A DNA stretch of 64,000 bases from Candidatus Nomurabacteria bacterium (GCA_020631995.1 JACKGJ010000002.1:90773-154772), one strand, 5' to 3'; positions 1 through 43,806 are shown, counted from the stretch's first letter. The notes: a model not told the origin generated them from the sequence alone. A program made the numbers and translations.

Positions 1-726
1 GTCTTAGTGTTTCCTGCGAGCTCACGAAGTTTCTGGTTGTTATAGGTATCAACGTCGGCGTTGTGGGTATAGAGTTTAGTTGGTTCTATATTTTCATACG
101 AAATACTGGTTTGTTCAGAGAGTAGTGTGTAGTGGTCTTCTTCGACTTGATTAAGACGAATAGATTTCAAAAGTCCCAAGAAGAGATTATCTTCCTGGCG
201 GTGTTGCTCAGAGAGGTAGCAAGTGAGTAGTTGCGCATCACTCCAAGCTCTTGACTGGAAGCTATAGAGCATTGAGTCGCCTCGGCGTGTCACTGGTGGC
301 AACTGAAAAAAGTCACCCACGAAGACCACCTGTATTCCACCAAATGGTTCTTCGCGTTGGCGCACAGTCTTTAAAACCAGATTCACCATATCAAGAATCT
401 TGCCGTCGAGCATTGAAACTTCATCAATAACTAAGACATTGGCCTTTTTGGCGCGACGAGAAACTTTTTCATTAGTCGAAATTTTGTCTAGGTCGTACGG
501 AGTCAGAGTGTCGCGTATACCAATACCACTCCAGGAATGGATAGTCATACCACCTATATGTGTGGCAGCGATACCGGTTGAGGCGGTGACAGCTACCGAC
601 AAGCCCGCTGCTTCGAGCCAAGCAATGTACTGGTTGATTACATAAGTCTTCCCTGCTCCGGGTTCACCAGTTAAAAAAACATTAGCGCCGGTCTTTAAAA
701 TATCGAGAGCTGCATTTTGGGTCATT
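1..726 (-). CDS. PIF1/RecD-like P-loop DNA helicase, N-terminal part (gene runs off the left edge)
   Basis: Own reverse translation from ATG at 724-726: MTQNAALDILKTGANVFLTGEPGAGKTYVINQ (Walker A), then ANVLVIDEVSMLDGK (Walker B-like) and FVGDFFQLPPV. This is the motif order of PIF1/RecD-type helicases. It is absent from the ORF track because no stop lies in the window. Confidence 0.7.
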
Positions 727-775
727 GGGTATAAGTTTACCATTTCAGAGTGACTTACGGATATAATGAAACAAA

Positions 776-2524
776 ATGAGTTCCAGTGTACATACACATT
801 CAAAGGTGCAAGAAAAAACCACGCGAGAGCCACTCGGGCATTTAGTGTTGTCTCACGCTCTTAAGGATGCTGGTTTTAAGGGTGAGGTATTGAGTGATAA
901 AAAGACCTTAGAGCTATACGCTACAGACGAAAGTGTTTTCAGTATTAATCCTCAGTTGGTACTTCGCCCGCTTGATAGACGTGATGTAGAGGTGGCTGTG
1001 AATGTGATAGCAGAGCAGACCAAAAGCTTCCCTGGTCTTTCCTTAACGCCCCGTGCCGCTGGTACTGGGCTAGGTGGCGGTTCGCTCACTGATTCAGTAG
1101 TGATAGATATCAAGGAACACCTAAATCAGATAGATAGAATTTCCAAAGTAGGAAGCAAGGTCACTTTTACCGCTGGTCCTGGAGCGATGTGGCGTGATGT
1201 GGAGAAGGAGCTTAAAAAATACGACCGTTATCTTCCCTGCTATCCGGCTTCTAAACAAATCTGTACAGTCGGTGGTGCTGTTGCAAATAATGCCGCTGGT
1301 CCAGACTCACTGCGCTTTGGGCATGTGGCTGATTGGGTAGAGTCGCTTGAAGTCGTTTTGAAGGATGGAAAAACCTACGACGTTAAACCGCTTTCATATA
1401 AGGAATTTCGCAAACTCATAAAGCAAAAGAATGCTCTTGGTGAGATCGCTAAACAAGTCTTTGAGCTAGTTGAATCAAATGAAGAAACCATTAAGAGGGC
1501 CAAGCCGAAAACTTCTAAGAATAGTGCAGGTTATGCGCTTTGGAATGTGGTGACTCCGTCAGTGGCGGAATTTAAGAAAGGTAAAGGTACTTTTGATCTC
1601 ACCCGGATATTCTCTGGCGGACAAGGCACTATCGGTATCATTACCTCACTCACTATGCGGACTGAGCCAATTCACCACGACACTTCCCTAATAGCCGTAC
1701 CAGTTTTCAATCTATCCAATGCCAGTCGCGTAGTTATAGAGGCACTTAAGTACAACCCTATAAACGTAGAAGTCTTCGATGCTCTTACTTACGACGCAGC
1801 GATGCAAAACCCACAGTTCTTCCGTGACCGACTACCAAGCCTCAGCTACTACCGTGTACTGCTCTCTATGTACACTACCTATCACGTTAGATGGCGACGC
1901 AAACTTCCAGAGTTTGTTTTGCTGATTACTCTTGATAACGCTTCTTTAAAGGAATTAAAGAAGCCGATGACTGAAGTGATTGAGGCACTACGAGTGCGCG
2001 GTGGTCCTTCGGCCCGATTGATCCAAAACCCAAATGAACGAGAAATGTTTTGGCAGGTTCGTGACGGTAGTTACCTACTTTCAAAACTACTTGACCCTAA
2101 CAAGCGTCCAGCTGCATTCCTTGAGGATATGACAGTTCCACCTGAGCATATGGCCAAGTTCTTTTCTGATATCAAGTACCTACTCAAGAAATATAATGTA
2201 ACGGCGGCAGTACACGGACATGGTGGTAACGCCCATTTTCACTTCTATCCCCTACTCGATTTCACTAACCGCACTACTCCAGCTTTAATAGTGAAAATGT
2301 CGGAAGAATTCTTTAATGTGGCAGTGAAGTATGGTGGAAACATATGTGGTGAACATAACGACGGAATTATTCGCACACCACATTTATCTAAGATGTTTTC
2401 TAAGAACGCCATCAAGCTCTTTGAAGAAACTGAACACATCTTTGATCCTGATGACATCTTTAACCCTGGTAAAAAGGTCCATCCTCGTTTTGATATAAAA
2501 AGTTCGATTAGGAAGGTGAATTGA
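776..2524 (+). CDS. FAD-binding oxidoreductase (GlcD / D-lactate dehydrogenase-like)
   Basis: 582-aa ORF with an FAD-binding region (PRAAGTGLGGGS) and a C-terminal FAD-linked oxidase signature (HGHGGNAHFHFYP, GEHNDG). Confidence 0.75.
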   Translation: MSSSVHTHSKVQEKTTREPLGHLVLSHALKDAGFKGEVLSDKKTLELYATDESVFSINPQLVLRPLDRRDVEVAVNVIAEQTKSFPGLSLTPRAAGTGLGGGSLTDSVVIDIKEHLNQIDRISKVGSKVTFTAGPGAMWRDVEKELKKYDRYLPCYPASKQICTVGGAVANNAAGPDSLRFGHVADWVESLEVVLKDGKTYDVKPLSYKEFRKLIKQKNALGEIAKQVFELVESNEETIKRAKPKTSKNSAGYALWNVVTPSVAEFKKGKGTFDLTRIFSGGQGTIGIITSLTMRTEPIHHDTSLIAVPVFNLSNASRVVIEALKYNPINVEVFDALTYDAAMQNPQFFRDRLPSLSYYRVLLSMYTTYHVRWRRKLPEFVLLITLDNASLKELKKPMTEVIEALRVRGGPSARLIQNPNEREMFWQVRDGSYLLSKLLDPNKRPAAFLEDMTVPPEHMAKFFSDIKYLLKKYNVTAAVHGHGGNAHFHFYPLLDFTNRTTPALIVKMSEEFFNVAVKYGGNICGEHNDGIIRTPHLSKMFSKNAIKLFEETEHIFDPDDIFNPGKKVHPRFDIKSSIRKVN

Positions 2525-2599
2525 GGGTCTGAACTTTTGACATCTCCCTAAACTATAGTATAATTTTGGAAGATTATTTACGAAACAGGGAGTGTTCTC

Positions 2600-2962
2600 A
2601 TGAATCGATCCGTACTTACGCTGGTGCTTAGCATCAGTTTTTCGCCCGCTGTCTTGGCAGAGGACTTCCACTGCCCGGTTGCATCTTGTTCGGGGATACG
2701 CCAAAACGGGAAAGGACTAGACATTGCTGTTGCAAAAGCCACTTTTGTCCACGCTGTCGAATCTGGTGAAGTCATCTTCGCTGATCGCCTCAAGCAGCAT
2801 GGTATGACCATCATCATCCGCCACAACAACGGAGGATATTCCTCCTATGGTCAGCTGGAGACTTTCCTTGTAGGGACAGGCGTTCGTGTAGGTCAAGGAA
2901 AGAAAATTGCAGTAAAATTGCCTGGCCCACCACTCTACTTCGAGTTGACTCAGCTGGAGTAA
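2600..2962 (+). CDS. Secreted LytM/M23-domain protein, probably non-catalytic
   Basis: Signal-like N-terminus MNRSVLTLVLSISFSPAVLA. M23 fold pattern IIIRHNNGGYSSYGQL...GQGKKIA...LYFEL. The expected HxxxD and HxH zinc ligands read GLD and PLYFE. Confidence 0.6.
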   Translation: MNRSVLTLVLSISFSPAVLAEDFHCPVASCSGIRQNGKGLDIAVAKATFVHAVESGEVIFADRLKQHGMTIIIRHNNGGYSSYGQLETFLVGTGVRVGQGKKIAVKLPGPPLYFELTQLE

Positions 2963-3016
2963 TGATTCTCGCCACCATTGTGAGGCTACAATCCCTCAGT
3001 TGGTGAATACAAAAGT

Positions 3017-3050
3017 GCCCTCTTGATGCTTATCTTGAGGGCCTTTTCTT
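3017..3050 (+). terminator. Rho-independent terminator after the LytM gene
   Basis: Stem GCCCTC (3017-3022) / GAGGGC (3037-3042) followed by CTTTTCTT. Confidence 0.55.
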
Positions 3051-3058
3051 ATAATACC

Positions 3059-3078
3059 AGTTAGTCAGGATTGGAATC
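3059..3078 (+). repeat. Cassette-junction repeat R1 (right-hand 20 nt only)
   Basis: AGTTAGTCAGGATTGGAATC matches 18/20 of the right part of R2. The left GTGACCCT part is absent. Confidence 0.7.
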
Positions 3079-3164
3079 TTTAAATTAAGAAAAAATTGAG
3101 ATGTATTCCCAAAACGATAAATTTATGACATAAATACCCTGGATTAATATACGGAGGTTAACCA

Positions 3165-3803
3165 ATGCTAACAGCTTTTGCCTTCAAATGGAGGTTGACG
3201 GGCTTGATTGCAAAACTACTCTGGAGGAACATAGAATGCGGATACCTCGTTCGTGTGGCGAATAGACGAGGTGAACATATTCAATGTTTGGTTAATTGTG
3301 TGGGATACGAGTTTGTTTCAAGAGAGTCACGAATCACTAGGGTTGGCTATCACACACAATCCAGACCGGGGTACGCTGTAAATGTAAACGGAGAACGAAC
3401 TTCAGATATATGCTGGGAGGCTCCTGTTTGTATTACAGTCTATTGCGAGGATAAACCCCTATTGGGTTTTGCAGTAGAATTCCGTGGACCTGTTCTTTGT
3501 ATACGACAGTTACAAGGTGTTCCAGGCGTAAATATTCCCGAAGCTTTGCGCAAGTGGCCAGCTTTGTTTGTGTATGGAGCAAAGAACTTTCTCTACAATA
3601 CTGAAGAAATTAGTTCAATGCGCCTATATACAGCTGATCAGCGTCCATCTTACGAATATCCTGCAACTGACTTCTCAGAAACTGAATTGCAAGATTACCG
3701 ACGCAACCTACGCAGACGATATGATGGAACCGCTCGTCAACAAGGGTTTAAAAGAAAAGGTCATAAGTTCTGGTGGTGGGATTTGTCTCTAGTCCCGAAG
3801 TAA
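3165..3803 (+). CDS. Hypothetical protein (cassette 1)
   Basis: 212-aa ORF with ACGGAGG SD-like sequence 7 nt upstream of the ATG and its own terminator at 3824-3861. No family confidently recognised. Confidence 0.55.
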   Translation: MLTAFAFKWRLTGLIAKLLWRNIECGYLVRVANRRGEHIQCLVNCVGYEFVSRESRITRVGYHTQSRPGYAVNVNGERTSDICWEAPVCITVYCEDKPLLGFAVEFRGPVLCIRQLQGVPGVNIPEALRKWPALFVYGAKNFLYNTEEISSMRLYTADQRPSYEYPATDFSETELQDYRRNLRRRYDGTARQQGFKRKGHKFWWWDLSLVPK

Positions 3804-3823
3804 CCGGCGCAATCGCCACTCAT

Positions 3824-3861
3824 AAAATCGCCACCCGCGATTCTGGGTGGCGATTTTCATT
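3824..3861 (+). terminator. Rho-independent terminator of cassette 1
   Basis: AAAATCGCCACCC / GGGTGGCGATTTT perfect stem with an 8-nt loop and a T-run. Confidence 0.7.
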
Positions 3862-3880
3862 TTCCAAGTTGGACTAATCT

Positions 3881-3907
3881 GTGACCCTAGTTAGTCGGGA
3901 TTGGAAC
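3881..3907 (+). repeat. Cassette-junction repeat R2
   Basis: GTGACCCTAGTTAGTCGGGATTGGAAC. It lies between two convergent terminators. Confidence 0.8.
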
Positions 3908-3938
3908 TTTATATACAAACAAATCTTAGTTTTGAGAT

Positions 3939-3988
3939 AAAAAAGCAGCCCACAAAACGTGTCTATGGGACTTACGCTTTGTGGGCTG
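3939..3988 (-). terminator. Rho-independent terminator of cassette 2
   Basis: On the minus strand, CAGCCCACAAA / TTTGTGGGCTG forms an 11-bp stem followed by TTTTTT. A homologous copy lies at 42573-42620. Confidence 0.65.
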
Positions 3989-3990
3989 TA

Positions 3991-4344
3991 TCAGCCGATT
4001 GGCTTGTGTTCGACAAACCCGCTGTGTTCGAACGGACGAATCCAGATGCCGAAATTGATGTGGTTGAGGTCACAAGAATTGCCGAAATCGGCCTTCAGGG
4101 CTTGCTTGTGCACATCGACTTCCCCGACAGTTCTCGATCCTGTGTCGATGACAAATTCGAGTCGCAGGATATTGTCTGCAAGATCCGCATCTTCGGCTGC
4201 AATCGGTTTCGGAATCACAGCAATATCTTCCATGCTGTAGCCGAGCTGTTGCGAGACCAGTTCGCGAAACTTCGTCTTGTTCTCCTTCAGGATGGCACGA
4301 ACTTCATTGTCGTCTGCCCGAAAGAGGGGGTAAATGTGTGGCAT
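3991..4344 (-). CDS. Hypothetical protein (cassette 2), 117 aa from the internal ATG
   Basis: I prefer the ATG at 4342-4344 because AGGAAGGAG sits just upstream. The protein starts MPHIYPLFRADDNEV. An N-terminal Met-Pro is reminiscent of the tautomerase superfamily, but this is only a guess. A terminator lies on the same strand. Confidence 0.5.
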   Translation of the reverse strand: MPHIYPLFRADDNEVRAILKENKTKFRELVSQQLGYSMEDIAVIPKPIAAEDADLADNILRLEFVIDTGSRTVGEVDVHKQALKADFGNSCDLNHINFGIWIRPFEHSGFVEHKPIG

Positions 4345-4411
4345 GTCTGACTCCTTCCTATAATAAGAACGTATGTTGAAATAGTACACGTTAAATACAC
4401 TTTGTCAAGTT

Positions 4412-4438
4412 GTGACCCTCGTTAGTAACGATTGGAAC
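4412..4438 (+). repeat. Cassette-junction repeat R3
   Basis: GTGACCCTCGTTAGTAACGATTGGAAC, 23/27 identical to R2. On the minus strand it directly abuts TTGACA (-35) of cassette 2. Confidence 0.75.
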
Positions 4439-4465
4439 CGTATTTATCAAAATTTGATTAAAGTA

Positions 4466-4500
4466 AAAGAAAAACTCGCCCGGGTCGAAACCCGAGCGAG
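4466..4500 (-). terminator. Rho-independent terminator of cassette 3
   Basis: CTCGCCCGGGT / ACCCGAGCGAG stem (10/11 paired), CGAA loop, T-run on the minus strand. Confidence 0.65.
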
Positions 4501-4516
4501 GCGCTGAACACGAGGA

Positions 4517-4813
4517 TCAGCTGATCTTGAAGTTGCCGAAGCGCTTGCCGTTACGCATCCAGTACCGAGCCTCGAAGGAAATCGGCTTGGCAGGATCAGT
4601 CATGATCTCGCCATCGATAGTCCAATTGCGACGACCGGAATCGTGGTTGCGAATGCCCCAGATGCGGACAGGGGTCTCGTTGTGCTGGTTCTCCAGCCGG
4701 AAGAAAACTTCCGAGCCTTCAAACACCGCAAACATCAGAGACGTCCGATCGGGACCGTTGACGATGGCAGCACCATCGTAGCGTTCAAGCACTTCCTTGT
4801 CAGAGGTGAACAT
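4517..4813 (-). CDS. Hypothetical protein (cassette 3), 98 aa from the internal ATG
   Basis: ATG at 4811-4813 preceded by GAAAGGAAG. The protein starts MFTSDKEVLERYDG. Terminator on the same strand. The longer track ORF (to 4918) would run into the promoter region. Confidence 0.5.
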   Translation of the reverse strand: MFTSDKEVLERYDGAAIVNGPDRTSLMFAVFEGSEVFFRLENQHNETPVRIWGIRNHDSGRRNWTIDGEIMTDPAKPISFEARYWMRNGKRFGNFKIS

Positions 4814-4921
4814 TACGTTCTTCCTTTCTTCAAGATTGGGAGTGGCATTACGCCTGTCTCCACATCCGCAGGTGCGAGATGCAAATGGAAAATACCACAA
4901 TAATAGTGATTGTGTCAACTC

Positions 4922-4948
4922 GTGACCTTAGTTAGTCGGGATTGGAAC
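4922..4948 (+). repeat. Cassette-junction repeat R4
   Basis: GTGACCTTAGTTAGTCGGGATTGGAAC, 26/27 identical to R2. On the minus strand it abuts TTGACA of cassette 3. Confidence 0.8.
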
Positions 4949-5063
4949 CAGCTAATTAACCAAGTTAGGTTGGCAACCCTAGATTTAAGACAGTAGATAG
5001 ACATATTTCCATAGGTATTGTAGTGTTGCGATACCCTCAGAAATCAGTGAAAGGAGTATTTCA

Positions 5064-5636
5064 ATGGGTACTGTACATCTGACAAACGGCCACCACGGCC
5101 TGTATATCAGTAACGACAAGATCGACCTCAAGCAACGGGTTCTTCTCACTCAGGCAATGCTCGAGCGTCCCATCTTCATCCGCGGCGAACGTTGGGGAAG
5201 CCCGATGCAAGATGTCATTCGCGGTGCTCTTCAGGGCTTGATGGATTTGAAAGGCTTCAATGCCGCCGTCTCCTATCTCACTGTTGAACATGACGGCGTT
5301 CTTCACATCTCGACACCAAAGCGTGTGTGGTGCGAGATCTCTCTGGAGACTCCATGGGAAATCGCTCTTGGTTTCTCCCACGACTCGAGGTATCGCAATC
5401 ACCCCTTCACCACCCTACTCCAATGGCTGGAAGAGGAGTATCCGGCTGGCGAACTGCCCTACAATGAGTTCAAGCAATTCTGCTTCGGTTGGGTGTCTCC
5501 TGAGAAGTGGCGTGAGTTCTTTGAGCACAGGATCCAGAAGAAGGTCGAGACTATGCGATCCAAGGCCAATACCCTGCGCCATGAGGCACAAGGAATGACT
5601 GAACGGGCAAACTCTATCGAAGCCATACTCGGCTAA
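5064..5636 (+). CDS. Hypothetical protein (cassette 4)
   Basis: 190-aa ORF with GAAAGGAG SD 8 nt upstream of the ATG, visibly G+C-rich. No family recognised. Confidence 0.55.
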   Translation: MGTVHLTNGHHGLYISNDKIDLKQRVLLTQAMLERPIFIRGERWGSPMQDVIRGALQGLMDLKGFNAAVSYLTVEHDGVLHISTPKRVWCEISLETPWEIALGFSHDSRYRNHPFTTLLQWLEEEYPAGELPYNEFKQFCFGWVSPEKWREFFEHRIQKKVETMRSKANTLRHEAQGMTERANSIEAILG

Positions 5637-5738
5637 CGACACGGTCCACTGACAAAAGGAAAGGCACATCAGCCTCCGTGTCGGTGGGCCTTTTCTTTTT
5701 ACTAGCTTTTTCTATAAATAAGAGTAGATTAGCGTCCA

Positions 5739-6137
5739 ATGTCTACCGGAATGAAAGTGGTGGGAGTTATTGGGACTGTGATTGTCTTGTCCTTAGGTGT
5801 CTCTGCGGTTGAACCTACCACTTCAACTACTCCCCCACTAAACACTGCTACTGGGGCAGTTAAGATTGAGTCCAAGTCGGAAACCAAACAAGAAGCAAAA
5901 GCTGACGAGCCAGAACCTGCAATTAAGCCGGTAGAAAAACCTAAAACTACCCCAGCGACACCTAAACCAACCTCAAGTTGTCACCCAAGTTACTCAGGCT
6001 GTCTCAAAATGAATGCTGGTGATTATGACTGTGCCGGAGGCTCAGGAAACGGTCCAAATTATACTGGCACGGTCCAAGTCTACGGCTCCGACCCATTTGA
6101 CTTAGATAGAGATAACGATGGTTGGGGGTGTGAGTAG
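5739..6137 (+). CDS. Secreted Excalibur calcium-binding domain protein
   Basis: N-terminal TM/signal segment, Pro/Thr-rich linker, and C-terminal CHPSYSGCL...DYDCAGGSGNGPNY...DPFDLDRDNDGWGCE, the Excalibur DxDxDGxxCE signature. Confidence 0.7.
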   Translation: MSTGMKVVGVIGTVIVLSLGVSAVEPTTSTTPPLNTATGAVKIESKSETKQEAKADEPEPAIKPVEKPKTTPATPKPTSSCHPSYSGCLKMNAGDYDCAGGSGNGPNYTGTVQVYGSDPFDLDRDNDGWGCE

Positions 6138-7277
6138 TTAGAACCAACTTTTAAAGAAAGAAATTATTTTCTTAAAGAAACTTTCTTTCACAACACCTAA
6201 ATCTTCTTGATTGGTGTCAGTGTCACTGCTTGTTGATACTTCAGTTGTTTCCACTTCGTCAATCATTTCTTGTTCTCCCCTAGGCACTTCTTCCTTCAAT
6301 GTTTCATCAGTTTGTACTTCTTGCTCAACAGTAGCCTGTTTAGGGGTTGTTTGCGGTGGAGTGTAAGTTTGTGTTGACTGGAAGTAGTAGGAATAATCTT
6401 CTTCCTCCTCAGGTTCAGGAAACGAATCATCGTAAGTTTTTTCCTTATGCATGATTGAGCAGGTTTGGCTGTGGTCTTGAAGGACCACCGTATCAAATGT
6501 ATCAACGCTATAGTCTGTTCCTAAATTCACAACTAAATTTTTACCTCGATATCTCTCAATTGATGTGCTCAGACAGCCAACACCTACACGCACGATGTAT
6601 TTTGAGTAATCATAGTCACTTTTAATCAAAAGTTCCTTGTCATTTTCGGGATTTATATCAAGAAGTTTGAAGTAGACATTATTTTGTTTTTCAACACACT
6701 GATAATCGTCGTCAAACGTATACCCACTATCACACTCACATTTATTGCTTAAGCTATCGTAAGAAGATCTGTAGCCATGATCACTACGACAAACCTGGTT
6801 AGCATTAGTACATTGTTGATCTCCAAACATATTGGTATCAAAAATGTAACCATAACTACACTCACAAGTATCTGAAAGCGAGTCGTATCGTGACATGATT
6901 CCGTACTCGTCATGACAAGCAGAATCACCTGAAACACATTGTGTCTGTCCAGAATAATTTTTGCCAAAGACATATCCGTAACCACATTCACATCCTCCTG
7001 AGTAGTTTGCTCTTGCGTTAAATCCGTATTGATCTTGACAAGCTTGTGTCTCAGAGATGCAGTAAGAATTTCCAAGTACCCCCTCGCCCATCACGTAGCC
7101 TGACATACATTTACAGTACCCACCACTTTCATAGGCCATAATCCCATAATCACTGCAGGAAGAGCCATACTGGGCTTGCGCATCGTGAGTTAGTAATAAA
7201 AAGCCACCAAAAACAATGGTGGTTCCAAAGAGTGCAAAAATGATGGCTGGCTGAGCCAATTTTAGTAAGTTTTTCAT
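6138..7277 (-). CDS. Membrane-anchored Cys-rich repeat protein
   Basis: Start taken at MKNLLKLAQPAIIFALFG (ATG 7275-7277). Four tandem modules of the type C..(Y/H)G......S....C.C..GY.F, for example SCSDYGIMAYESGGYCKCMSGYVMG and SACHDEYGIMSRYDSLSDTCECSYGYIFD. Acidic C-terminal tail. Confidence 0.65.
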   Translation of the reverse strand: MKNLLKLAQPAIIFALFGTTIVFGGFLLLTHDAQAQYGSSCSDYGIMAYESGGYCKCMSGYVMGEGVLGNSYCISETQACQDQYGFNARANYSGGCECGYGYVFGKNYSGQTQCVSGDSACHDEYGIMSRYDSLSDTCECSYGYIFDTNMFGDQQCTNANQVCRSDHGYRSSYDSLSNKCECDSGYTFDDDYQCVEKQNNVYFKLLDINPENDKELLIKSDYDYSKYIVRVGVGCLSTSIERYRGKNLVVNLGTDYSVDTFDTVVLQDHSQTCSIMHKEKTYDDSFPEPEEEEDYSYYFQSTQTYTPPQTTPKQATVEQEVQTDETLKEEVPRGEQEMIDEVETTEVSTSSDTDTNQEDLGVVKESFFKKIISFFKSWF

Positions 7278-7624
7278 TGAGATTAAAATAGCACTAAAAG
7301 TGTAAAAGTCTAGGTTGTAGAACAGATGAAACTTGTCTGGTTGCATGGCTGGACCTTTGACTCCGTATAAGTGGCGGTTAAGAAAACCGGTACTAGAGAT
7401 TTTGTAAATAACCGTTCTTGTTGGTTAAAGGTAAATTTTTTGTGTATTAGCATTATTTTCACAAAGAACAACCCACCCCTGTGGATAACTCAGAATGGTG
7501 CAGTTTTCCCTTCCAGAAAATACGGCTTAGATAAGGGCTTTTTGCGTAAAAGTTTGATTTTAATGTTTCGAGCTTAAATTTATACCATTTTTAAGCCGTG
7601 TTTAAATATAAGTAGATAGCATTT

Positions 7625-7716
7625 TGTGCAGGCGTCGTGATTTTCACGGCAAGTTATTGCCGTAGAGCTGATCACTGTTGGGGCAAATGCCCCAACGAAA
7701 TCGTGACGCCTGCACA
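7625..7716 (+). ncRNA. Candidate structured RNA, three-way junction, unclassified
   Basis: 19-bp closing stem 7625-7643 / 7698-7716, including two G.U pairs that work only on the plus strand. Hairpins ACGGCAA/TTGCCGT (7646-7663) and GTTGGGGC/GCCCCAAC (7677-7696). Confidence 0.3.
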
Positions 7717-7810
7717 GTACACTATCTGCCCTCTTTACAGATTAACAGGAAAAGGTCGACTGTCATGTCTGTTTTCCACAGGGCTTTAAAAGTATCATTT
7801 TGTTCTTAGT

Positions 7811-7978
7811 ATGACAAATAAACGTTTTCGCGGACTTCGCCCACTAAAACCATTGGATAGAATGCAAAACATGCGGACAATGAGACCAATGGGAGCAAAG
7901 AAGTGGGTTAAGGCTCACTGGAGATGGGACTATGACCGACGGCAGTGGGAATGGGTAACGGGACATTGGAGTAGATAA
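7811..7978 (+). CDS. Small basic Trp-rich protein (55 aa), YXWGXW-repeat-like
   Basis: Own translation: MTNKRFRGLRPLKPLDRMQNMRTMRPMGAKKWVKAHWRWDYDRRQWEWVTGHWSR. It is below the track length cut-off. A GCCGA/TCGGC hairpin plus TATTTTCTT follows near 8041-8067. Confidence 0.4.
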   Translation: MTNKRFRGLRPLKPLDRMQNMRTMRPMGAKKWVKAHWRWDYDRRQWEWVTGHWSR

Positions 7979-8103
7979 TATCGTTGTGGTCACAAGTTAC
8001 TAAGTATAATCGTGCATTTCATGCAGATTATACTAAGTACTTGCCGACCCCGCCTCGGCTATTTTCTTCACTAGGAAGGGTTCAGAAAATTATGCCTGCG
8101 GCC

Positions 8104-8195
8104 TCACATCAGGCCCGAAACTGAAGCAGTTCAGTTTCTACACAAGAAAACACTACCTCACGGAGAAGTAGTGTTTTCTTGTGTGCCTGATGTGA
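8104..8195 (-). other. Compact three-way-junction structure in the tRNA-Glu 3' trailer
   Basis: Stems 8104-8114/8185-8195 (11 bp), 8117-8125/8130-8138 (9 bp) and 8140-8156/8168-8184 (17 bp). Only 3 unpaired junction nucleotides. Confidence 0.3.
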
Positions 8196-8264
8196 CCCTA
8201 CAGGGAATCGAACCCTGATTTAAGCCTTGAGAAGGCTCCGTCCTAACCGTTAGACGATAGGGCC
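8193..8264 (-). tRNA. tRNA-Glu (anticodon CUC)
   Basis: GGCCCTATCGTCTAACGGTTAGGACGGAGCCTTCTCAAGGCTTAAATCAGGGTTCGATTCCCTGTAGGGTCA folds as a 72-nt cloverleaf with anticodon loop TTCTCAA. CCA is not encoded. Confidence 0.9.
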
Positions 8265-8414
8265 AGTGGCGGTATTTATACCAAATATTTTGCGTTTAGT
8301 GAAGTGATGTGAGGGGGGTGGCTCTATATAGCTTTTGTCATAAATTCCCTGCCTACTCGTCTTATATAGTAGTGGCGATGGTTATCGCAGGTTATTAACT
8401 TAAATAAAATTCTT

Positions 8415-8603
8415 ATGTTATCTTGGGCTCTCACTTTCTTTGTCCTAGCTCTAATCGCTGGTGTGCTAGGTTTTACCGGCATCGCTTCAGCTTCGGCTGG
8501 AATCGCGAAGATTCTCTTTGTTGTCTTTATTATTCTCTTTGTCCTGTCTTTCTTTTTTAAGGCAGCGGGTAAAGCGGACAATATGCTCGACAAGAATATG
8601 TAG
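8415..8603 (+). CDS. DUF1328/YtjA-type small membrane protein
   Basis: [45 protein letters not shown] matches the UPF0391 pattern. Confidence 0.75.
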
Positions 8604-8667
8604 AACGTGTAGCGGACAGAATAAAAGGCCGACACTTTCTGTGCCGGCCTTTTCGCTTTCTTTCAGT

Positions 8668-8940
8668 TCAGTGCAAACGGAACTCAGCGTCCACCATGCG
8701 AATCTCAGCGGGCCTGATGAGGTGGCTGTGTGCAATAACCACCGAATTGATGGGTGCTTCAATAGAAGTTTCCCAGAATTGCAGGAATTTTTGCAAACGC
8801 GGGAATTTAGGGTGCAGATCGTAGAACTGCCAGATAAATTCGCCCAGTAGCGACGGTGTGTCGGGAAGTCGATAGTAGATATGGGCTGTGGTCTGTCCAT
8901 ATCCTGCCATTGATTCACGGAAAGCGGTGTCGGTGTGCAT
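8668..8940 (-). CDS. Usg-like family protein
   Basis: Start at ATG 8938-8940 with AAGGAGG upstream. YGQTTAHIYYRLPDTPSLLGEFIWQFYDLHPKFPRLQKFLQFWETSIEAPINSVVIAHSHLIRPAEIRMVDAEFRLH fits my recollection of the Usg family, which is typical of Alphaproteobacteria. Flanked by G+C-rich hairpins. Confidence 0.6.
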   Translation of the reverse strand: MHTDTAFRESMAGYGQTTAHIYYRLPDTPSLLGEFIWQFYDLHPKFPRLQKFLQFWETSIEAPINSVVIAHSHLIRPAEIRMVDAEFRLH

Positions 8941-9049
8941 TTTCTGTCCTCCTTTTCCTGTGGGAAATGATAATACTTTGAATAATTTGCACAAGAAAAA
9001 CCGGCGTTTAAACGCCGGTTTTTCTATGCTGTCAATTCAAGGTGAACTA

Positions 9050-9751
9050 CTAATTGTCGTCAGTAGTGAAGTCTTCTACATCTCCACAAACTAGTACATC
9101 GTCACCATCCTCATCTTCGAATCCGACGCAAATAGTGAAGTAGTAGTCAGTGTCTTCGTCGAGTCCAGTAACGGTCTCTTCGTAGTCCTCATCATCATCA
9201 AGGTTTGAATCAACGCGGACCTTTTGTAGGTCATCACCGTCTTCGTCAACATCACGATATGAGTCATAGTCATCTTCAACGTCTTCAATCTGATCCTCAT
9301 CTTCTCCGTAGACAAAGAATACTTCTCCGTCTTCAAAGTCGTTCATATCGACTGAACCACGAAGTTCAGCTCTGTCATCTTCAATATCACGAGCACTGTC
9401 AGTTTCTACTTCAGGCTCATCGTCATCGTTGTTTCTAGAGTCACCACGCGGGTCTCCGATAACGTAACCATAGCTATAGTTGTAGCCAGGGTTGTAGTAT
9501 CCACCACCGTAGTTGTATCCCTTACGAGCCTCAATTTGGGCCTGTAGCTGAACAATAAGCTGCTTAAGGAAAGCGATAAGCTGTTCCTCACTCATTTGGT
9601 TACCGCCATACGTGTAAGTAGGGGTATTTGTATTCTGGTATTGATAAGTGGTCGGTACGTAATAGTAAGTGCTGTTAGCTTCAGCCTGTCCTGCTGGGTA
9701 AAAAGCAAAAACTGCTGCAACTGCCACACCTAGGAATAAAATCTTTTTCAT
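9050..9751 (-). CDS. Secreted Tyr/Gly-rich and extremely acidic protein
   Basis: Signal peptide MKKILFLGVAVAAVFAFYPAGQAEA, a YNYGGGYYNPGYNYSYGY segment, then a long Asp/Glu-rich C-terminal half. Confidence 0.6.
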   Translation of the reverse strand: MKKILFLGVAVAAVFAFYPAGQAEANSTYYYVPTTYQYQNTNTPTYTYGGNQMSEEQLIAFLKQLIVQLQAQIEARKGYNYGGGYYNPGYNYSYGYVIGDPRGDSRNNDDDEPEVETDSARDIEDDRAELRGSVDMNDFEDGEVFFVYGEDEDQIEDVEDDYDSYRDVDEDGDDLQKVRVDSNLDDDEDYEETVTGLDEDTDYYFTICVGFEDEDGDDVLVCGDVEDFTTDDN

Positions 9752-9831
9752 ACGTTCGTACTGTACACCTTTAAATCAGAGTGTCAAGGGTAGAATTTAA
9801 TCGCTGAATTTGAGTATCTAAATCAATGTAA

Positions 9832-11124
9832 CTAGCTAATATCTTTCCAGGCTCGGCTTTGACGTACTAGCAGATTCTCAGCCTCAGCTGGGTTAGCCAT
9901 AATTTCCTCTACTATTTTCTCCATTCTCATACTCTGAGAGCCTTTTATGAGGACGATGTCGCCTGGTTGGAGTAGGTTTTGGAGTTCTTTACCGGCTTGA
10001 GTCGCTTCTTCATACTGCAGGATGTTTTTTTCACTCATTCCAGCTTCAAGTGCTGCTTCAGCAATGCCACGAGAGCGAATACCGATAGTAATTAAAAGAT
10101 CAGTACACTCTTCTGCCTGAATACCAACACGCTCATGCTCCCCCACTGAGAAGCGTCCGAGTTCTAACATATCTCCAAGTACAGCCACTTTACGATTGAA
10201 ACCTTTTATCTCCTTTAGGGTAGATAAAGATCTCTCTACTGCCACTGGAGAAGAATTGTATGTATCATCAATAATAACTGTGTTCTTGATACCTTCTATT
10301 AGGCGCATACGGCCAGGTGGCGGTATAAAGTCTTGAAGTGCAACCGCAGAGTCATTTAAAGAGATATTAAAGCAGCTAGCTACTGCTGTTGCGGCTGAAA
10401 AATTGTATGTATGTGCCACGCCAATAGCACCTAGTAGTGTGCACTTAGCACTCTCACCATTTGAATGGATAGTGAAGCCCATACCCTTTGGACTACCATC
10501 TTTGTAGATTACTTCATCACCCTTAACTACAAAATCAGATTCGGAATAACGACTATAACCAATGGAGCGTTGTCTGGTTTGTTCGGCTACTTCCAGCACA
10601 GCTTCGTCATCATGGTTGTATATCAATACCCCGTCGTCCTTCAGGGCTTCAACTAGTGCTCTCTTTTCAGCTATGACTGCTTCAGGTGAGGAAAAGTATT
10701 CTACATGTACTGGCACACTTGGAAGTCGAGTTAATACTACGATGTCTGGTTTAACCCATGATGCCAATCTCTTCATATCTCCTGGACGGTCCACTCCCAT
10801 TTCAAGAACTAACACCTCTGGGTAGTTACCTGGAAAAAGTGCGTGTAAAAGACCATCAATAATGTTTTTAAACCAGTGAAAAGGATTCTGCCAAGCATTA
10901 TCAAGTCCGAGTATCGAAAGCGGTACACCAATATCGGAGTTGTAGCTCTTTTCGCTCTTTCTGGTGCGGACTTTGTTTTTAAGTACGTGATAGATGGCGT
11001 CTTTAGTAGAGGTCTTCCCCACACTTCCTGTTATGGCCACTATCTTTGGCTTCGTTCTCCGTAAGAGCAGTCGAGCTTCGGCAGTTAGAATGGTAACAAT
11101 CAGAGATTTTAAAATAGATTTCAT
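9832..11124 (-). CDS. murF: UDP-N-acetylmuramoyl-tripeptide--D-alanyl-D-alanine ligase
   Basis: Mur ligase P-loop ITGSVGKTSTKD, 430 aa, positioned directly downstream of ftsI. Confidence 0.85.
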   Translation of the reverse strand: MKSILKSLIVTILTAEARLLLRRTKPKIVAITGSVGKTSTKDAIYHVLKNKVRTRKSEKSYNSDIGVPLSILGLDNAWQNPFHWFKNIIDGLLHALFPGNYPEVLVLEMGVDRPGDMKRLASWVKPDIVVLTRLPSVPVHVEYFSSPEAVIAEKRALVEALKDDGVLIYNHDDEAVLEVAEQTRQRSIGYSRYSESDFVVKGDEVIYKDGSPKGMGFTIHSNGESAKCTLLGAIGVAHTYNFSAATAVASCFNISLNDSAVALQDFIPPPGRMRLIEGIKNTVIIDDTYNSSPVAVERSLSTLKEIKGFNRKVAVLGDMLELGRFSVGEHERVGIQAEECTDLLITIGIRSRGIAEAALEAGMSEKNILQYEEATQAGKELQNLLQPGDIVLIKGSQSMRMEKIVEEIMANPAEAENLLVRQSRAWKDIS

Positions 11125-11165
11125 ATGTGAGGTTGATGGGTAACAAAAGGATTTAACTGATTATT

Positions 11166-12890
11166 CTATCGATCCGGCGGGATATTGTAGTAGTTTATCA
11201 AGAATTTAGTGATATTCATAAAAGGCTCGGTCAGGGTTTCTGATGAGTAACTTACCCCCTGCGGGTTAACTGTGTATAGGAATACCAAGAACTCTGGGTC
11301 GTAGGCGGGGAAATAACCAAAGAATGAGTGTAGGTAGCGGTCCTCATAGTACCCTCCAGTGTTGCTAGCCATCTGGGCCGTACCGGTTTTGGCAGCCACT
11401 GTGTGCTCAGGAAGCTTAACTTTACCGCCACGTAGCGCATCATCTACCACGGTCACCAACATTCTGCTTATCTCTTCACTAGTTTCTTTACTCCATACCT
11501 GGTCTCCTTCTGGAAACATTATTTCTTTTTTTGTACCGTCTTCATATTCAATAGACTTAACTATATGAGGAGTGATAAGACGTCCACCGTTACCCAACGC
11601 TGACAGCGCTCGTACTGCAGCTATTGGAGTGAGAGCGATACCTTGCCCGTATGATGCTGTGGCATATTCGATACTACGTGTTGTGTTGAGGTTTTCTAGG
11701 TCGCCGTGTATCTCGCCCACTAGGTCTATTCCCGTCTCGCTCCCTAGTTTTAGTTTATTAAAATATTCTAGAAAACGTGCCTGACCCATTGTCCTCACTA
11801 CGAAGGCCACGCCAGTGTTTAATGATTGATTCAATACTTCTTGCATAGAAACAGTGCCGCGACCGCGGCCATCGTAGTTACGAATCGTTTCAGTGTCTAT
11901 CTCTAGGAAACCCGCATCGTAATAGGTGGTATTAGCAGAAACAGCTTTGCTATCAATACCAACCGCCATAGTGAGGGCCTTAATAATACTGCCGAGTTCG
12001 TAGCGAGCACTGACTAATGGATTGGTGAAATGATCTAGAGTGCTGGTACCACGAGCATTTGGATTAAAGGTAGGTACAGCATCAATCGCATAAATCTCTC
12101 CAGTCTTAGGGTTGATTATGATTCCACCAGTTAGTTCTGACCGCCAGACACCATTGGCTTTTAGTAATTCATTTTGTAGTAGTCTGGCCACGGTCGGCTC
12201 GATTGTAGTCACAATATCACCCTCTTTTTTTTCTGGGTCTTCAGAGATTAGCTTGCCAAGGTTGGTAAATAGCTCGGCAAAAAAATTGACCGATAACTCC
12301 TCGCTCTTTCGGTGCAGGGTGTCTTCGTAGTAGCGTTCTAGTCCGTATCGTCCGATAGGTTCCTCGCCGACTGTTTTCCCCTCGTATGCCACAAAGCCAA
12401 TAGTGCGGGCAGATAAAGGTCCTCCAGGATAATAACGCCAGCGCTGTCGTTTTAGTGATACTCCAGGCAGATCGAGTTCTTTTATGGCCAGAGCTTCTTC
12501 TTCAGTTAGTTCTTCACGGATCTCTACGTCGACGCGATTTTCTAAAGTAGCACGGTATAGAAAAGTTTCTTTGTTTATAAAAATATACTGCTTTAAGGCT
12601 TCATACAAAGCTTCTGCATTTTCAACCCGACTCGGATCGAGTGAGAGAGTGTACCCACTTTGAATGGTGGCAGCACTCACTTTCTCTCCGTCACGGGTAG
12701 TGAAATAAATACTACCTCGATCATAAAGATTTTGGACCGTATGAATGTACTGTCCTTCACCACGGGCGACGTAGGTTTCAAAACTGATGACTTGTAGTTG
12801 ATAAAGGCGTGCTACTAACACTAAAGCCACCAGCAAGACTATACCGGTGATTACTCTTATTCTGATTACTGCTGCATTTCTTGCACTCAT
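11166..12890 (-). CDS. ftsI: Penicillin-binding protein, FtsI/PBP3-type transpeptidase
   Basis: N-terminal TM segment. Transpeptidase motifs SIIK (SxxK), SLN (SxN) and KTGTA. The ATG at 12888-12890 is preferred over the TTG used by the track. Confidence 0.8.
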   Translation of the reverse strand: MSARNAAVIRIRVITGIVLLVALVLVARLYQLQVISFETYVARGEGQYIHTVQNLYDRGSIYFTTRDGEKVSAATIQSGYTLSLDPSRVENAEALYEALKQYIFINKETFLYRATLENRVDVEIREELTEEEALAIKELDLPGVSLKRQRWRYYPGGPLSARTIGFVAYEGKTVGEEPIGRYGLERYYEDTLHRKSEELSVNFFAELFTNLGKLISEDPEKKEGDIVTTIEPTVARLLQNELLKANGVWRSELTGGIIINPKTGEIYAIDAVPTFNPNARGTSTLDHFTNPLVSARYELGSIIKALTMAVGIDSKAVSANTTYYDAGFLEIDTETIRNYDGRGRGTVSMQEVLNQSLNTGVAFVVRTMGQARFLEYFNKLKLGSETGIDLVGEIHGDLENLNTTRSIEYATASYGQGIALTPIAAVRALSALGNGGRLITPHIVKSIEYEDGTKKEIMFPEGDQVWSKETSEEISRMLVTVVDDALRGGKVKLPEHTVAAKTGTAQMASNTGGYYEDRYLHSFFGYFPAYDPEFLVFLYTVNPQGVSYSSETLTEPFMNITKFLINYYNIPPDR

Positions 12891-12992
12891 TAGATTTATT
12901 TCAAAGTTAGTGACCAATTTTTAAGGAGCGTAAGAGACTATAAAAATGGAAATACTCTTGTGGTGCATCTACTTTTGAAAGAAATCTATTAA

Positions 12993-42625: not shown

Positions 42626-43078
42626 TCATCGAGGGAAACCAGCATCCTTCTGCCAGGTCCAACCTGCTGTTGCTAGTCCAGTCAGAAGTCCTCCGTTGTA
42701 TAAGTCCATGCGAATCCATTTCGCAGCAGCGATGCTGTATAGAATGGCCAGACCATGAGCGATTTCCTTCTCAGGTAGGTCTGGAGAAAGAGCGATACTG
42801 TCTTGCTTCCATGCCTCCATCTCGATCAGGGTAGGAATTCGTCGCTCGGCAATAAGCTTTTGCAGATGGATTCGGGCATCTTCCACTGAAGCCTCAATTT
42901 CTTCTTCATCCATGTCGAGTATCTCTGCTGTGCTTGTGTAGCTGTGTTGTCTTACAACTACCAAAACAAGAGGATGAAGTTCAGAGGGCATCAAATGAAA
43001 CATCGCCGCTATTTCTTCAGGCAAAACATGAGCCTTACCTGGATTCAGAATTGCTGTCGAAAAAACGTCACTGAGCAT
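42626..43078 (-). CDS. Hypothetical protein with sigma-70 region-4-like HTH (G+C-rich one-gene module)
   Basis: AGGAGG SD before ATG 43076-43078. LMPSELHPLVLVVVRQHSYTSTAEILDMDEEEIEASVEDARIHLQKLI resembles sigma70_r4_2. The terminator is homologous to that of cassette 2. Confidence 0.5.
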   Translation of the reverse strand: MLSDVFSTAILNPGKAHVLPEEIAAMFHLMPSELHPLVLVVVRQHSYTSTAEILDMDEEEIEASVEDARIHLQKLIAERRIPTLIEMEAWKQDSIALSPDLPEKEIAHGLAILYSIAAAKWIRMDLYNGGLLTGLATAGWTWQKDAGFPR

Positions 43079-43314: not shown

Positions 43315-43607
43315 CTCCGCGGGCAGGATTCGAACCTGCGACCAATCGATTACACGAATCCCAATGTTTCCAAAGGGCGTGGACTATATCATCACCCACT
43401 AGGGGTGGAAGGCGCTTCCCCGGATTTCTCCGAGTACTCCCGTTAGGGATAGTCTCTGAACCTTTCCTTTGATTACTCTCCGGACTTGGCTGCTGATTGC
43501 CCACGGCTTTACGTTTGGGTTCCCAGCAGTTCACCTTCTTTTCGATCTGGATTACTCCAGAAAGCTGCCTTTGACAGTCGACCGCTCTACCGCTGAGCTA
43601 CCGCGGA
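43315..43607 (-). tRNA. tRNA-Asn (anticodon GUU) interrupted by a group I intron
   Basis: Exon 1 43574-43607 is TCCGCGGTAGCTCAGCGGTAGAGCGGTCGACTGT. Exon 2 43315-43352 is TAATCGATTGGTCGCAGGTTCGAATCCTGCCCGCGGAG. Joined, they give a 72-nt cloverleaf with loop CTGTTAA, a U1-A72 pair and G73, like bacterial tRNA-Asn. Confidence 0.85.
43353..43573 (-). ncRNA. Group I intron, 221 nt, no ORF
   Basis: The 5' exon ends in U and the intron ends in G. GCAG near the intron 5' end can pair with exon CUGU (P1 with a U.G pair). Conserved core strings GCAGCCAAGUCC and GUUCAGAGACUA with the complementary AUAGUC (P7), as in the Tetrahymena and Azoarcus introns. Confidence 0.85.
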
Positions 43608-43700: not shown

Positions 43701-43771
43701 GGGCCCATAGTATAGTGGTAGAACGAATCCATGGCATGGATTAGGTCCGAGTTCGATTCTCGGTGGGTCCA
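43701..43771 (+). tRNA. tRNA-Ala (anticodon GGC)
   Basis: GGGCCCATAGTATAGTGGTAGAACGAATCCATGGCATGGATTAGGTCCGAGTTCGATTCTCGGTGGGTCCA has anticodon loop ATGGCAT and the G3:U70 identity pair. The D-stem is imperfect. Confidence 0.8.
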
Positions 43772-43806
43772 CTTAAATGAAGAATCGGTCATGCTAAAAT
43801 CCGATT

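Follow-up and report, generated by a model that had tools for sequence, protein, structure and literature searches.

Attachment-site-like repeats beside a tRNA-Glu gene of a Candidatus Nomurabacteria genome and their probable origin from a family of large serine recombinases

Why should a repeat that parts small genes from one another begin with the last nucleotides of a tRNA gene? The question is raised by a 64-kb stretch of a Candidatus Nomurabacteria genome (64,000 nt of GCA_020631995.1, here called the window), in which whole or partial copies of a 27-nt repeat, named R0 to R3, lie among small cassettes on the 3' side of a tRNA-Glu gene (Table 1). tRNA genes are textbook targets of tyrosine integrases, and a first-pass annotation had read the repeats as displaced tRNA-Glu 3' ends left by serial site-specific integration. 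That the tRNA end is shared through site-specific integration at the tRNA-Glu 3' end is supported by comparison with other contigs and by a link to a recombinase. The repeats are very probably attachment-site (att) junctions left by one family of large serine recombinases (LSRs) integrating at that end, and the enzyme predicted to act here belongs to the serine recombinases, whereas tRNA islands usually have one of the tyrosine type.

The repeat and the tRNA-Glu 3' end

On the plus strand the tRNA-Glu 3' end (8192-8214) reads GTGACCCTACAGGGAATCGAACC, which is parsed as GTGACCCTA-CA-GGGAATCGAACC. The repeat opens with the same GTGACCCTA, found in the window only at 3881 and 8192. The first-pass annotation had counted nine identical nucleotides and, after replacement of CA by GTTAGTC, a T-arm match of 9/11, and had placed the repeats 3.2-5.1 kb from the tRNA 3' end, on its 3' side and in its orientation; figures and coordinates are both correct, all copies lying on the plus strand. 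Shuffles put the chance expectation of the repeat copies at none, and a search of the 64 kb with a profile built from 13 such sites matched only R0 to R3, with no site within 5000-8191. Against tRNA-Glu the repeat has a gapped local score of 10.5, and as high a score is found for 0.9% of the 27-mers in the window and for 1.7% of repeats after shuffling. The shuffling check that had been proposed thus gives p of about 0.01-0.02 within the window alone, and the similarity to the tRNA is by itself only moderately significant. The decisive support for the link is comparative: every one of the five other metagenome contigs that reach far enough carries the same site, in the same orientation, 0.4-2.8 kb 3' of a tRNA-Glu gene.

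The remainder of the repeat has a coding frame. Read as GTG ACC CTA GTT AGT CGG GAT TGG AAC, it gives VTLVSRDWN, and after every copy the frame continues for 19-33 further tail-like codons (in R3 it reads LVTLVSRDWNQLINQV..., tail VTLVSRDWNQLINQV...). Differences between copies are largely synonymous (CTA/CTC/CTT, CGG/CGA, AAC/AAT). A tail of this kind ends a full-length protein, P0117 (LVTHISRDWNQLLWELNQW..., native-tail form LVTHISRDWNQLL...), an intact 527-aa LSR that matches the SPbeta and TP901-1 integrase structures. Its gene lies on a 6216-nt contig, L056, which has no tRNA and whose ends overlap by 30 nt, the overlap that a circular molecule assembled with k = 31 should show, so that it may be a circle. 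The 3' end of the gene contains aaatctaaattgGTGACCCATATTAGTCGAGATTGGAACC, identical to R1 at 23 of 27 positions (the site is also given as GTGACCCATATTAGTCGAGATTGGAAC); a search for a phage-type attachment site (attP) with a GTTAGTC-like variant, as the first-pass annotation had suggested, is thereby rewarded. The attP stretch of the family contains ...AAATCTAAATTGGTGACCCATATTAGTCGAGATTGGAACC.... The repeat is thus a predicted attP-type site, with a core of 7-9 nt shared with the tRNA and a P' arm of 18 nt to its right. Since these 18 nt encode the VSRDWN... tail and recur in the attP of L056, they are not a decayed T-arm, and the view of the repeat as a displaced tRNA 3' half holds for its first 7-9 nt only.

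The difference between CA and GTTAGTC, which had been called the only structural one, is real, and it takes on another meaning when spacing is considered. At the tRNA, whose B' arm (CAGGGAATCGAACC) is antisense to the T-arm, 9 nt separate GACCC from TCGAAC; in the P' arms, 14 nt separate GACCC from TGGAAC. The spacing of 14 versus 9 holds in the window, L047, L037, L038 and L029, it is 15 versus 10 in a type that targets tRNA-Ala (L041/L046), and MAFFT independently sets a net 5-nt gap. For the LI/A118 integrase, the motif of the zinc-ribbon domain was found to be shifted 5 bp toward the centre in the bacterial site (attB) relative to attP, and the authors proposed that attP and attB are told apart by this shift (Rutherford et al., 2013; PMC3783163). 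The difference at the repeat matches this published geometry and, by that rule, would be the signature expected of a serine-integrase attB/attP pair, not of T-arm decay. GGGAwTsGAAC (GGGATTGGAAC in attP, GGGAATCGAAC in attB) is then the putative binding motif of the zinc-ribbon domain. The antisense T-loop, conserved in nearly all tRNAs, plausibly serves as the outer motif of attB, which would explain switches between tRNA species within the family.

Pairs of hybrid sites (attL and attR) and a variable ninth position limit strand exchange to GTGACCC. R1 makes up a full symmetric 46-bp site. A dyad axis falls on core nt 4 (GTG-A-CCC), with 14/24 complementary positions in R1, 13/24 in the attP of L056 and 12/24 in the reconstructed attP of L047; because the axis is on nt 4 in these three sites, the central dinucleotide may be GA or AC of GTGACC. 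The codons L-V-T (TTG GTG ACC) are the antisense of GGU-CAC-CAA, and on this reading the element would replace only the last acceptor base, A73 and CCA. On the P side, an inner motif, TTGTCAAT, is kept in at least seven independent junctions; it resembles the 3' codons of the recombinase (TGTCAATTG versus TCTAAATTG) and bears no trace of adjoining recombinase coding sequence. In R2 and R3 its TTGTCAA doubles, as read from the sequence, as the -35 box (TTGACA) of the minus-strand cassette genes. A possible B-arm motif in L020 (GGTTCGCTT) was not common to the other attL sites and was dropped. The array of another contig, L024, mixes a VSGDWK-type site (1801) with sites of a second subfamily, GTGACCCACAACAGGATACACCTCGAAC (830-990 and 2305-2440), with the tail duplicated; this array suggests that the GTGACC core is common to recombinases of different lineages.

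Recombinases and integrated elements in other genomes

In L008, a near-conspecific contig with a flank 98.9% identical to that of the window, the 3' part of a gene abuts tRNA-Glu. In its product, the C-terminal region of an LSR can be recognised together with the Cys-rich zinc-ribbon motif, and the sequence ends ...DSSNLVTLQGIEP before the stop (the C-terminal end being given as SSNLVTLQGIEP); read on the other strand, the final nine codons are tRNA acceptor and T-arm. Two facts on the island side speak for an attB half at the tRNA 3' end: the strain-variable region stops exactly at 8192, and the open reading frame (ORF) of L008 enters the same sequence. Three homologues, P0001-P0003, end like the L008 product, one of them carrying PF07508. 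A scan of species-representative genomes found 21 homologue loci, and in about 15 the ORF ends inside a tRNA 3' end, most often of tRNA-Glu, but also of tRNA-Lys, tRNA-Ala and tRNA-Tyr. Most of these loci come from Candidatus Saccharibacteria and other Patescibacteria metagenome-assembled genomes, which are also the source of the nearest recombinase loci.

The proteins at these 21 loci have 500-550 aa with Resolvase, Recombinase and Zn_ribbon_recom domains. A database search with a threshold of E <= 1e-20 returned 2257 homologues, and tails were inspected in the best 120: 76 of these end in G[IFLV]E[PL], about 21 more have RIEL-type tails (judged by eye), and at least nine are 20-30 residues longer and carry the native tail, LVTxxSxxWNQLxxELxxWxxFG. 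Recombinase scans of the viral contigs in IMG/VR gave only distant LSRs (at most 38% identity), and the repeat had no match among viral contigs; because of the distance of these LSRs, the elements are not recognisable phages.

Integrated elements were found in several contigs. L047 holds a complete element of 6.2 kb in which attL (GGTGACCC-AAATTAGTGGTAATTGGAAC) is followed by cargo (AbiU2 and SIR2 + HerA), the recombinase and attR at tRNA-Glu(TTC); joining its P arm to its P' arm restores the native tail ...KLVTQISGNWNSLVSELNSW.... The complete element in L037 is similar and also has attL and attR. L038 carries an array of about 17 kb with two recombinases and several sites upstream of tRNA-Glu. 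The inserts of L012 and L020 are minimal: a P' site, a remnant of the tail, a terminator, one gene with its promoter, and TTGTCAATnT-GTGACCCTAC at the tRNA. Hybrid attL/attR pairs are thus present in L047, L037, L012 and L020, and the part shared by attP and attB is short, GTGACCC(TA). Degenerate sites and truncated recombinase fragments also occur inside arrays (L018 5626-6024, L033 and L048).

Related elements and cassettes are enriched in cargo of the phage-defence type (L047 4899-8656, L037 1656-3813, L056 2637-5066, L001 14536-15339), examples being AbiU2, SIR2 + HerA, Schlafen/AlbA_2, a Z1-domain protein and an Apyc1-like metallo-beta-lactamase fold.

The strain-variable island and its cassettes

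Exact-protein look-ups of the flanking LytM-like gene and of a 62-aa gene beyond the tRNA led to a sister strain, GCA_020632025.1 (contigs L001 and L007). It is 100% identical to the window over 1-3055 and 99.8% over 8192-12932, and it carries different genes in the 5.2 kb between these conserved flanks. The composite island that the first-pass annotation had proposed for 3059-8192 is thus borne out as a strain-variable region, 3056-8191, with edges at exactly 3055/8192 against this strain. The window, L001 and L008 have three different tRNA-proximal junctions in spite of flanks that are about 99% identical, yet another sequence abutting tRNA-Glu in L008, and several short contigs end exactly at 3055 or near 8192. 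Because the flanks are near-identical while the content between them differs among strains, the region is a gene-turnover hot spot, its right edge being the last tRNA nucleotide. The empty site joining the LytM region to tRNA-Glu, for which a search had been proposed, was not found in any relative's contig recovered. At the left edge, a 12-bp direct repeat, TTTTCTTATAAT, occurs in L001 at 10446-10457 and 12562-12573 (window 3044-3055) and brackets 2.1 kb with three genes that are missing from the window, which suggests an ordinary deletion or insertion between short repeats and not an att-site event.

Modules move between positions and genomes. Cassette c1 recurs in L001 at another array position with 94% identity, preceded there by a shortened form of the R0 junction (12575-12588), and an R1-like site recurs with 83%. 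The module at 3880-4408 (c2) is 89% identical to L020 673-1203, its edges falling at the site core and the P arm, in two genomes whose core genes share about 85% identity. One and the same 27-mer stands in the window, in L020, twice in L025 and in L030, although the core genes of the genomes sharing it are only 80-85% identical. The cassette genes come with promoters and terminators of their own, in either orientation, and c2, c3 and c4 exceed their flanks in G+C content. Comparison of island proteins with Pfam, PHROGs and PADLOC gave nothing but a weak Excalibur match, and exact-protein look-ups of c1, c2 and c3 found none on record. There was no tyrosine integrase by Pfam among the island ORFs, nor any Phage_integrase among the L001/L007 genes within 10 kb on either side.

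Table 1. Features of the tRNA-Glu region, by position in the window
Feature	Position	Strand	Description
R0, P'-arm-only copy at left edge of variable region	3059..3081	+	AGTTAGTCAGGATTGGAATC; without GTGACCC core; profile E = 1.5e-4
R0, right half only	3060-3077	+	GTTAGTCAGGATTGGAAT
Cassette c1	3082..3858	+	212-aa ORF (3165-3803), own terminator, no known domain
R1 attP-like site, best preserved	3859..3907	+	TTCCAAGTTGGACTAATCT GTGACCCTA GTTAGTCGGGATTGGAA; dyad axis at core nt 4
R1, 27-nt repeat, reference copy	3881-3907	+	GTGACCCTAGTTAGTCGGGATTGGAAC
Recombinase C-terminal tail coding remnant after R1	3881..3940	+	VTLVSRDWNFIYKQILVLR then stop
Cassette c2	3908..4411	minus	118-aa ORF (3991-4347, minus), own promoter and terminator
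R2 attP-like junction	4402..4438	+	inner P-arm TTGTCAAgtt, core GTGACCCT, diverged P' arm CGTTAGTAACGATTGGAAC
R2, repeat copy, diverged	4412-4438	+	GTGACCCTCGTTAGTAACGATTGGAAC
Cassette c3	4439..4911	minus	99-aa ORF (4517-4816, minus); G+C about 55% versus about 44% in flanks
R3 attP-like junction	4912..4948	+	GTGTCAActc GTGACCTTA GTTAGTCGGGATTGGAAC
R3, repeat copy	4922-4948	+	1 mismatch to R1
tRNA-proximal segment without further att sites	4949..8191	.	absent from L001; 99.6% identical in L055
190-aa ORF	5064-5636		in tRNA-proximal segment
Excalibur-like secreted protein	5739-6137		in tRNA-proximal segment
Cys-rich 402-aa protein	6138-7346	minus	
Structured non-coding element	7612-7729	+	
55-aa ORF and tRNA-trailer hairpins	within 4949..8191		
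Probable attB-derived half at tRNA-Glu 3' end	8192..8214	+	core GTGACCC(TA) and B' arm CAGGGAATCGAACC
tRNA-Glu(CTC), probable integration target	8192-8264	minus	ARAGORN; Rfam RF00005, 61.9 bits

Several structured elements accompany the tRNA. The non-coding element between the Cys-rich gene and the 55-aa ORF is Y-shaped and very stable, a long outer stem enclosing two GC-rich hairpins (-68.5 kcal/mol; z = -10.2 against shuffles), and matches no Rfam family. The tRNA-Glu trailer has a terminator-like hairpin at 8140-8184 and, upstream of that hairpin, an inverted copy of the tRNA 3' end and trailer (CCTGCGGCCTCACATCAGGC versus GCCTGATGTGACCCTACAGG; 8095-8114 and 8126-8204), so that the att core is present inverted about 90 nt away. 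A 33-nt inverted repeat (3106-3138 / 8271-8303, 76% complementary) encloses almost the whole island and the tRNA; it is probably due to chance, because the region is AT-rich and the left arm moves with c1 in L001. In the sister strain, a non-coding element of about 170 nt lies at the tRNA-Glu 3' end (L001 15413-15585), flanked by an exact 16-nt duplicate of the tRNA end, GTGACCCTACAGGGAA. It recurs with 85-87% identity in a distant genome (L018 4938-5110 and 6874-7146), one copy beside tRNA-Glu(TTC), the other, which has an insert, at a distance of 2 kb. On both sides the element ends in inverted sequences that resemble the tRNA end, of which one is split by a 23-nt hairpin, and a long-range stem is predicted, with five compensatory pairs in three sequences. 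Rfam searches of the whole window, and permissive ones of 7250-8300 and of L001 15340-15720, gave only tRNAs, a group I intron and sub-threshold hairpin noise. The intron (43360-43590, minus strand; RF00028, 82.8 bits, full length) has no rRNA match around it; tRNA-Ala(GGC) lies nearby (43701-43772, plus strand), and a 150-aa ORF just downstream on the strand of the intron (42626-43078, minus) could be a homing endonuclease.

Formation of the array, its rivals and known systems

The proposed course of events starts from a free element whose attP would lie inside the last recombinase codons. Its P arm would be ...L-V-T (TTG GTG ACC), the antisense of tRNA A73-CCA, its core GTGACCC, and its P' arm, (TA)GTTAGTCGGGATTGGAAC..., would encode the native tail VSRDWNxL.... 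The attB would comprise the tRNA trailer, GTGACCC and the antisense T-arm, with strands exchanged within the core. Integration would rebuild the tRNA, cost the recombinase its tail so that it reads into the tRNA, and leave the P' arm on the insert's far side. Were such events repeated at one tRNA, the result would be an array with internal P/P' hybrids, attP-like as R1-R3 are. Cassettes with a single gene and no recombinase would have entered the array as part of this history, those of the window being either non-autonomous elements or remnants.

Several observations weigh against this account. Its internal junctions are attP-like, and canonical LSRs join attP to attB only; for the array to grow, attP would have to recombine with attR or attL, unless homologous recombination or a relaxed specificity were at work. 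Of the P-arm motifs, R2 and R3 have the inner but not the outer one, R0 is without a core, and the symmetry analysis is ambiguous for several sites, the axis being clear only in R1, L056 and L047. By tblastn, the 64-kb window encodes no recombinase homologue. The 3.2 kb adjoining the tRNA are without a site, the tRNA-proximal flank is without a recognisable P arm, and in L001 no att site marks the left edge of the variable region. Finally, the recombinase ORF of L008 has an in-frame TGA at 429-431, so that the gene may be a pseudogene, the sequence in error or the stop codon recoded; host genes of the window read normally under table 11.

How the cassettes came to lack a recombinase may be explained in two ways. 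Every unit may go back to a complete element with a recombinase, since stripped of that gene and of most cargo, the strain differences being due to homologous recombination and deletion with no ongoing site-specific events; we rate the chance of this as considerable, if somewhat below even. The degenerate sites and recombinase fragments inside arrays agree with it, as do the 12-bp repeat around the 2.1-kb difference between L001 and the window and the different truncation of R0 in the two strains. It fits poorly with 27-mers perfectly kept across diverged genomes, with an inner P-arm motif free of adjoining coding sequence, and with the clean one-gene inserts of L012 and L020. The other explanation is that units without a recombinase (c1-c3, L012, L020) keep both att arms and are inserted serially by a recombinase acting in trans, which would amount to an integron-like or pseudo-SCC-like platform (SCC, staphylococcal cassette chromosome) running on a serine recombinase. 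For such mobilisation in trans speak the modules bounded exactly by core and P arm, their differing order between genomes, the retention of TTGTCAAT with its likeness to recombinase codons, the full symmetry of R1, the identity of the 27-mer across diverged genomes, the clean attL/attR-type ends of the one-gene inserts in L012 and L020, and the recombinase-bearing variant in the near-conspecific L008. Yet the candidate circular cassette contigs (L024, L029, L030) were without terminal overlap, many junctions are degenerate besides the reduced P arms of R2 and R3, and the joining of attP with attR or attL is not a canonical LSR reaction. We entertain mobilisation in trans as a tentative possibility, and think it rather unlikely that the locus is a cassette-capture platform proper, in which single-gene cassettes with an attP-like site of about 46 bp are added serially at the tRNA-Glu 3' end by an enzyme encoded elsewhere in the population.

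Two other explanations dispense with a serine recombinase altogether. Decayed tRNA-Glu 3' halves left by islands with tyrosine integrases would account for the common orientation on the 3' side of the tRNA, for the T-arm match of 9/11 and for the true 16-nt duplicate of the tRNA end in L001 (15414-15429). They would not account for a right half conserved as the coding sequence of a serine recombinase tail and present in the attP of L056, or for an offset of exactly 5 nt in every family member, the tRNA-Ala types included, and neither the island nor the 10 kb on either side in the sister strain holds a Phage_integrase. With only 9 nt of tRNA repeated, which is no displaced 3' fragment, this explanation is very improbable and was rejected. 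Single-gene cassettes parted by a repeat recall an integron array (IntI/attC), and the p value within the window alone leaves some room for a chance resemblance to the tRNA; either is scarcely credible. The sites, 27-46 bp long, form no attC-like hairpins (z = -1.1, -1.7 and +0.4 against shuffles), there is no integron integrase, the cassettes have their own signals in both orientations, and the tRNA-Glu link is replicated in every informative contig. Spacing, the absent hairpin and the coding frame likewise led to rejection of CRISPR-like and attC-like readings.

The att junctions and the enzymes linked to them in other genomes resemble LSR systems (A118/LI, phiC31, Bxb1, TP901-1, SPbeta) in having the Resolvase, Recombinase and zinc-ribbon domains, a short shared core, an outer motif 5 bp nearer the centre in attB, and an attP that is an imperfect inverted repeat of about 46 bp. 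A survey of 2015 held that no use of tRNA genes by serine integrases was known. Unlike the usual LSRs, whose sites lie inside protein genes, the present family targets a tRNA 3' end that the element rebuilds, and its attP lies within the 3' coding end of the recombinase, so that integration swaps the C-terminal 25-35 residues or so. Unlike those of phage LSRs, the elements seen here are small (about 6 kb) and carry defence-type cargo.

The integration target of Mx8 is a tRNA gene. An integrase ORF that spans attP is known from Mx8 and SSV (PMC4383910, the Islander paper, which cites Tojo et al., 1996, for Mx8), and in Mx8 IntP/IntX and SSV1, as here, the ORF crosses attP and integration alters or splits the protein; those enzymes are tyrosine recombinases, which differ in chemistry and have longer segments of identity. 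Like the Islander islands at tRNA and tmRNA genes, the elements abut the tRNA 3' end, regenerate the tRNA and form tandem arrays (PMC4383910), but they repeat only 7-9 nt of tRNA instead of a 3' half of 15-50 nt. Composite SCC islands have short direct repeats and pseudo-SCC units without a recombinase (bioRxiv 10.1101/336396). SCC/SCCmec elements (CcrAB/CcrC, 3' end of rlmH) likewise rely on serine recombinases, insert one after another at the 3' end of a single conserved gene and form tandem composites; they differ from a system with a tRNA-Glu target, units down to one gene (0.4-0.8 kb) and a single recombinase gene spanning its own attP. The likeness would be functional only, and the locus is no member of the group, its target being tRNA-Glu and not rlmH. 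As in integrons, mostly single-gene cassettes are parted by a recombination site; unlike integrons, the arrays have no IntI, attI or attC hairpins, their genes have their own promoters and both orientations, and the recombinase is of another type. The open-access papers searched, outside which a prior description is possible, gave no account of this Saccharibacteria/Patescibacteria system of serine recombinases and tRNA genes.

A large family of serine recombinases would thus use tRNA genes as targets, most of the best 120 among its 2257 homologues having tails antisense to tRNA. The A73-CCA end of the tRNA is also written in the final conserved codons of the recombinase, and the T-loop plausibly supplies the outer motif of attB. 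Together these features offer a rule, open to test, by which attB and attP could be predicted for many uncharacterised serine integrases, enzymes in demand as tools of genome engineering. They would also account for a hot spot at which genes, those for defence and secreted proteins among them, turn over between strains, apparently in Patescibacteria, and they make it conceivable that a serine recombinase runs a cassette system like that of integrons. If cassettes are indeed captured in this way, the T-loop as outer motif would let the family hop between tRNA species, and the arrays would be an independently evolved analogue of the integron with serine chemistry.

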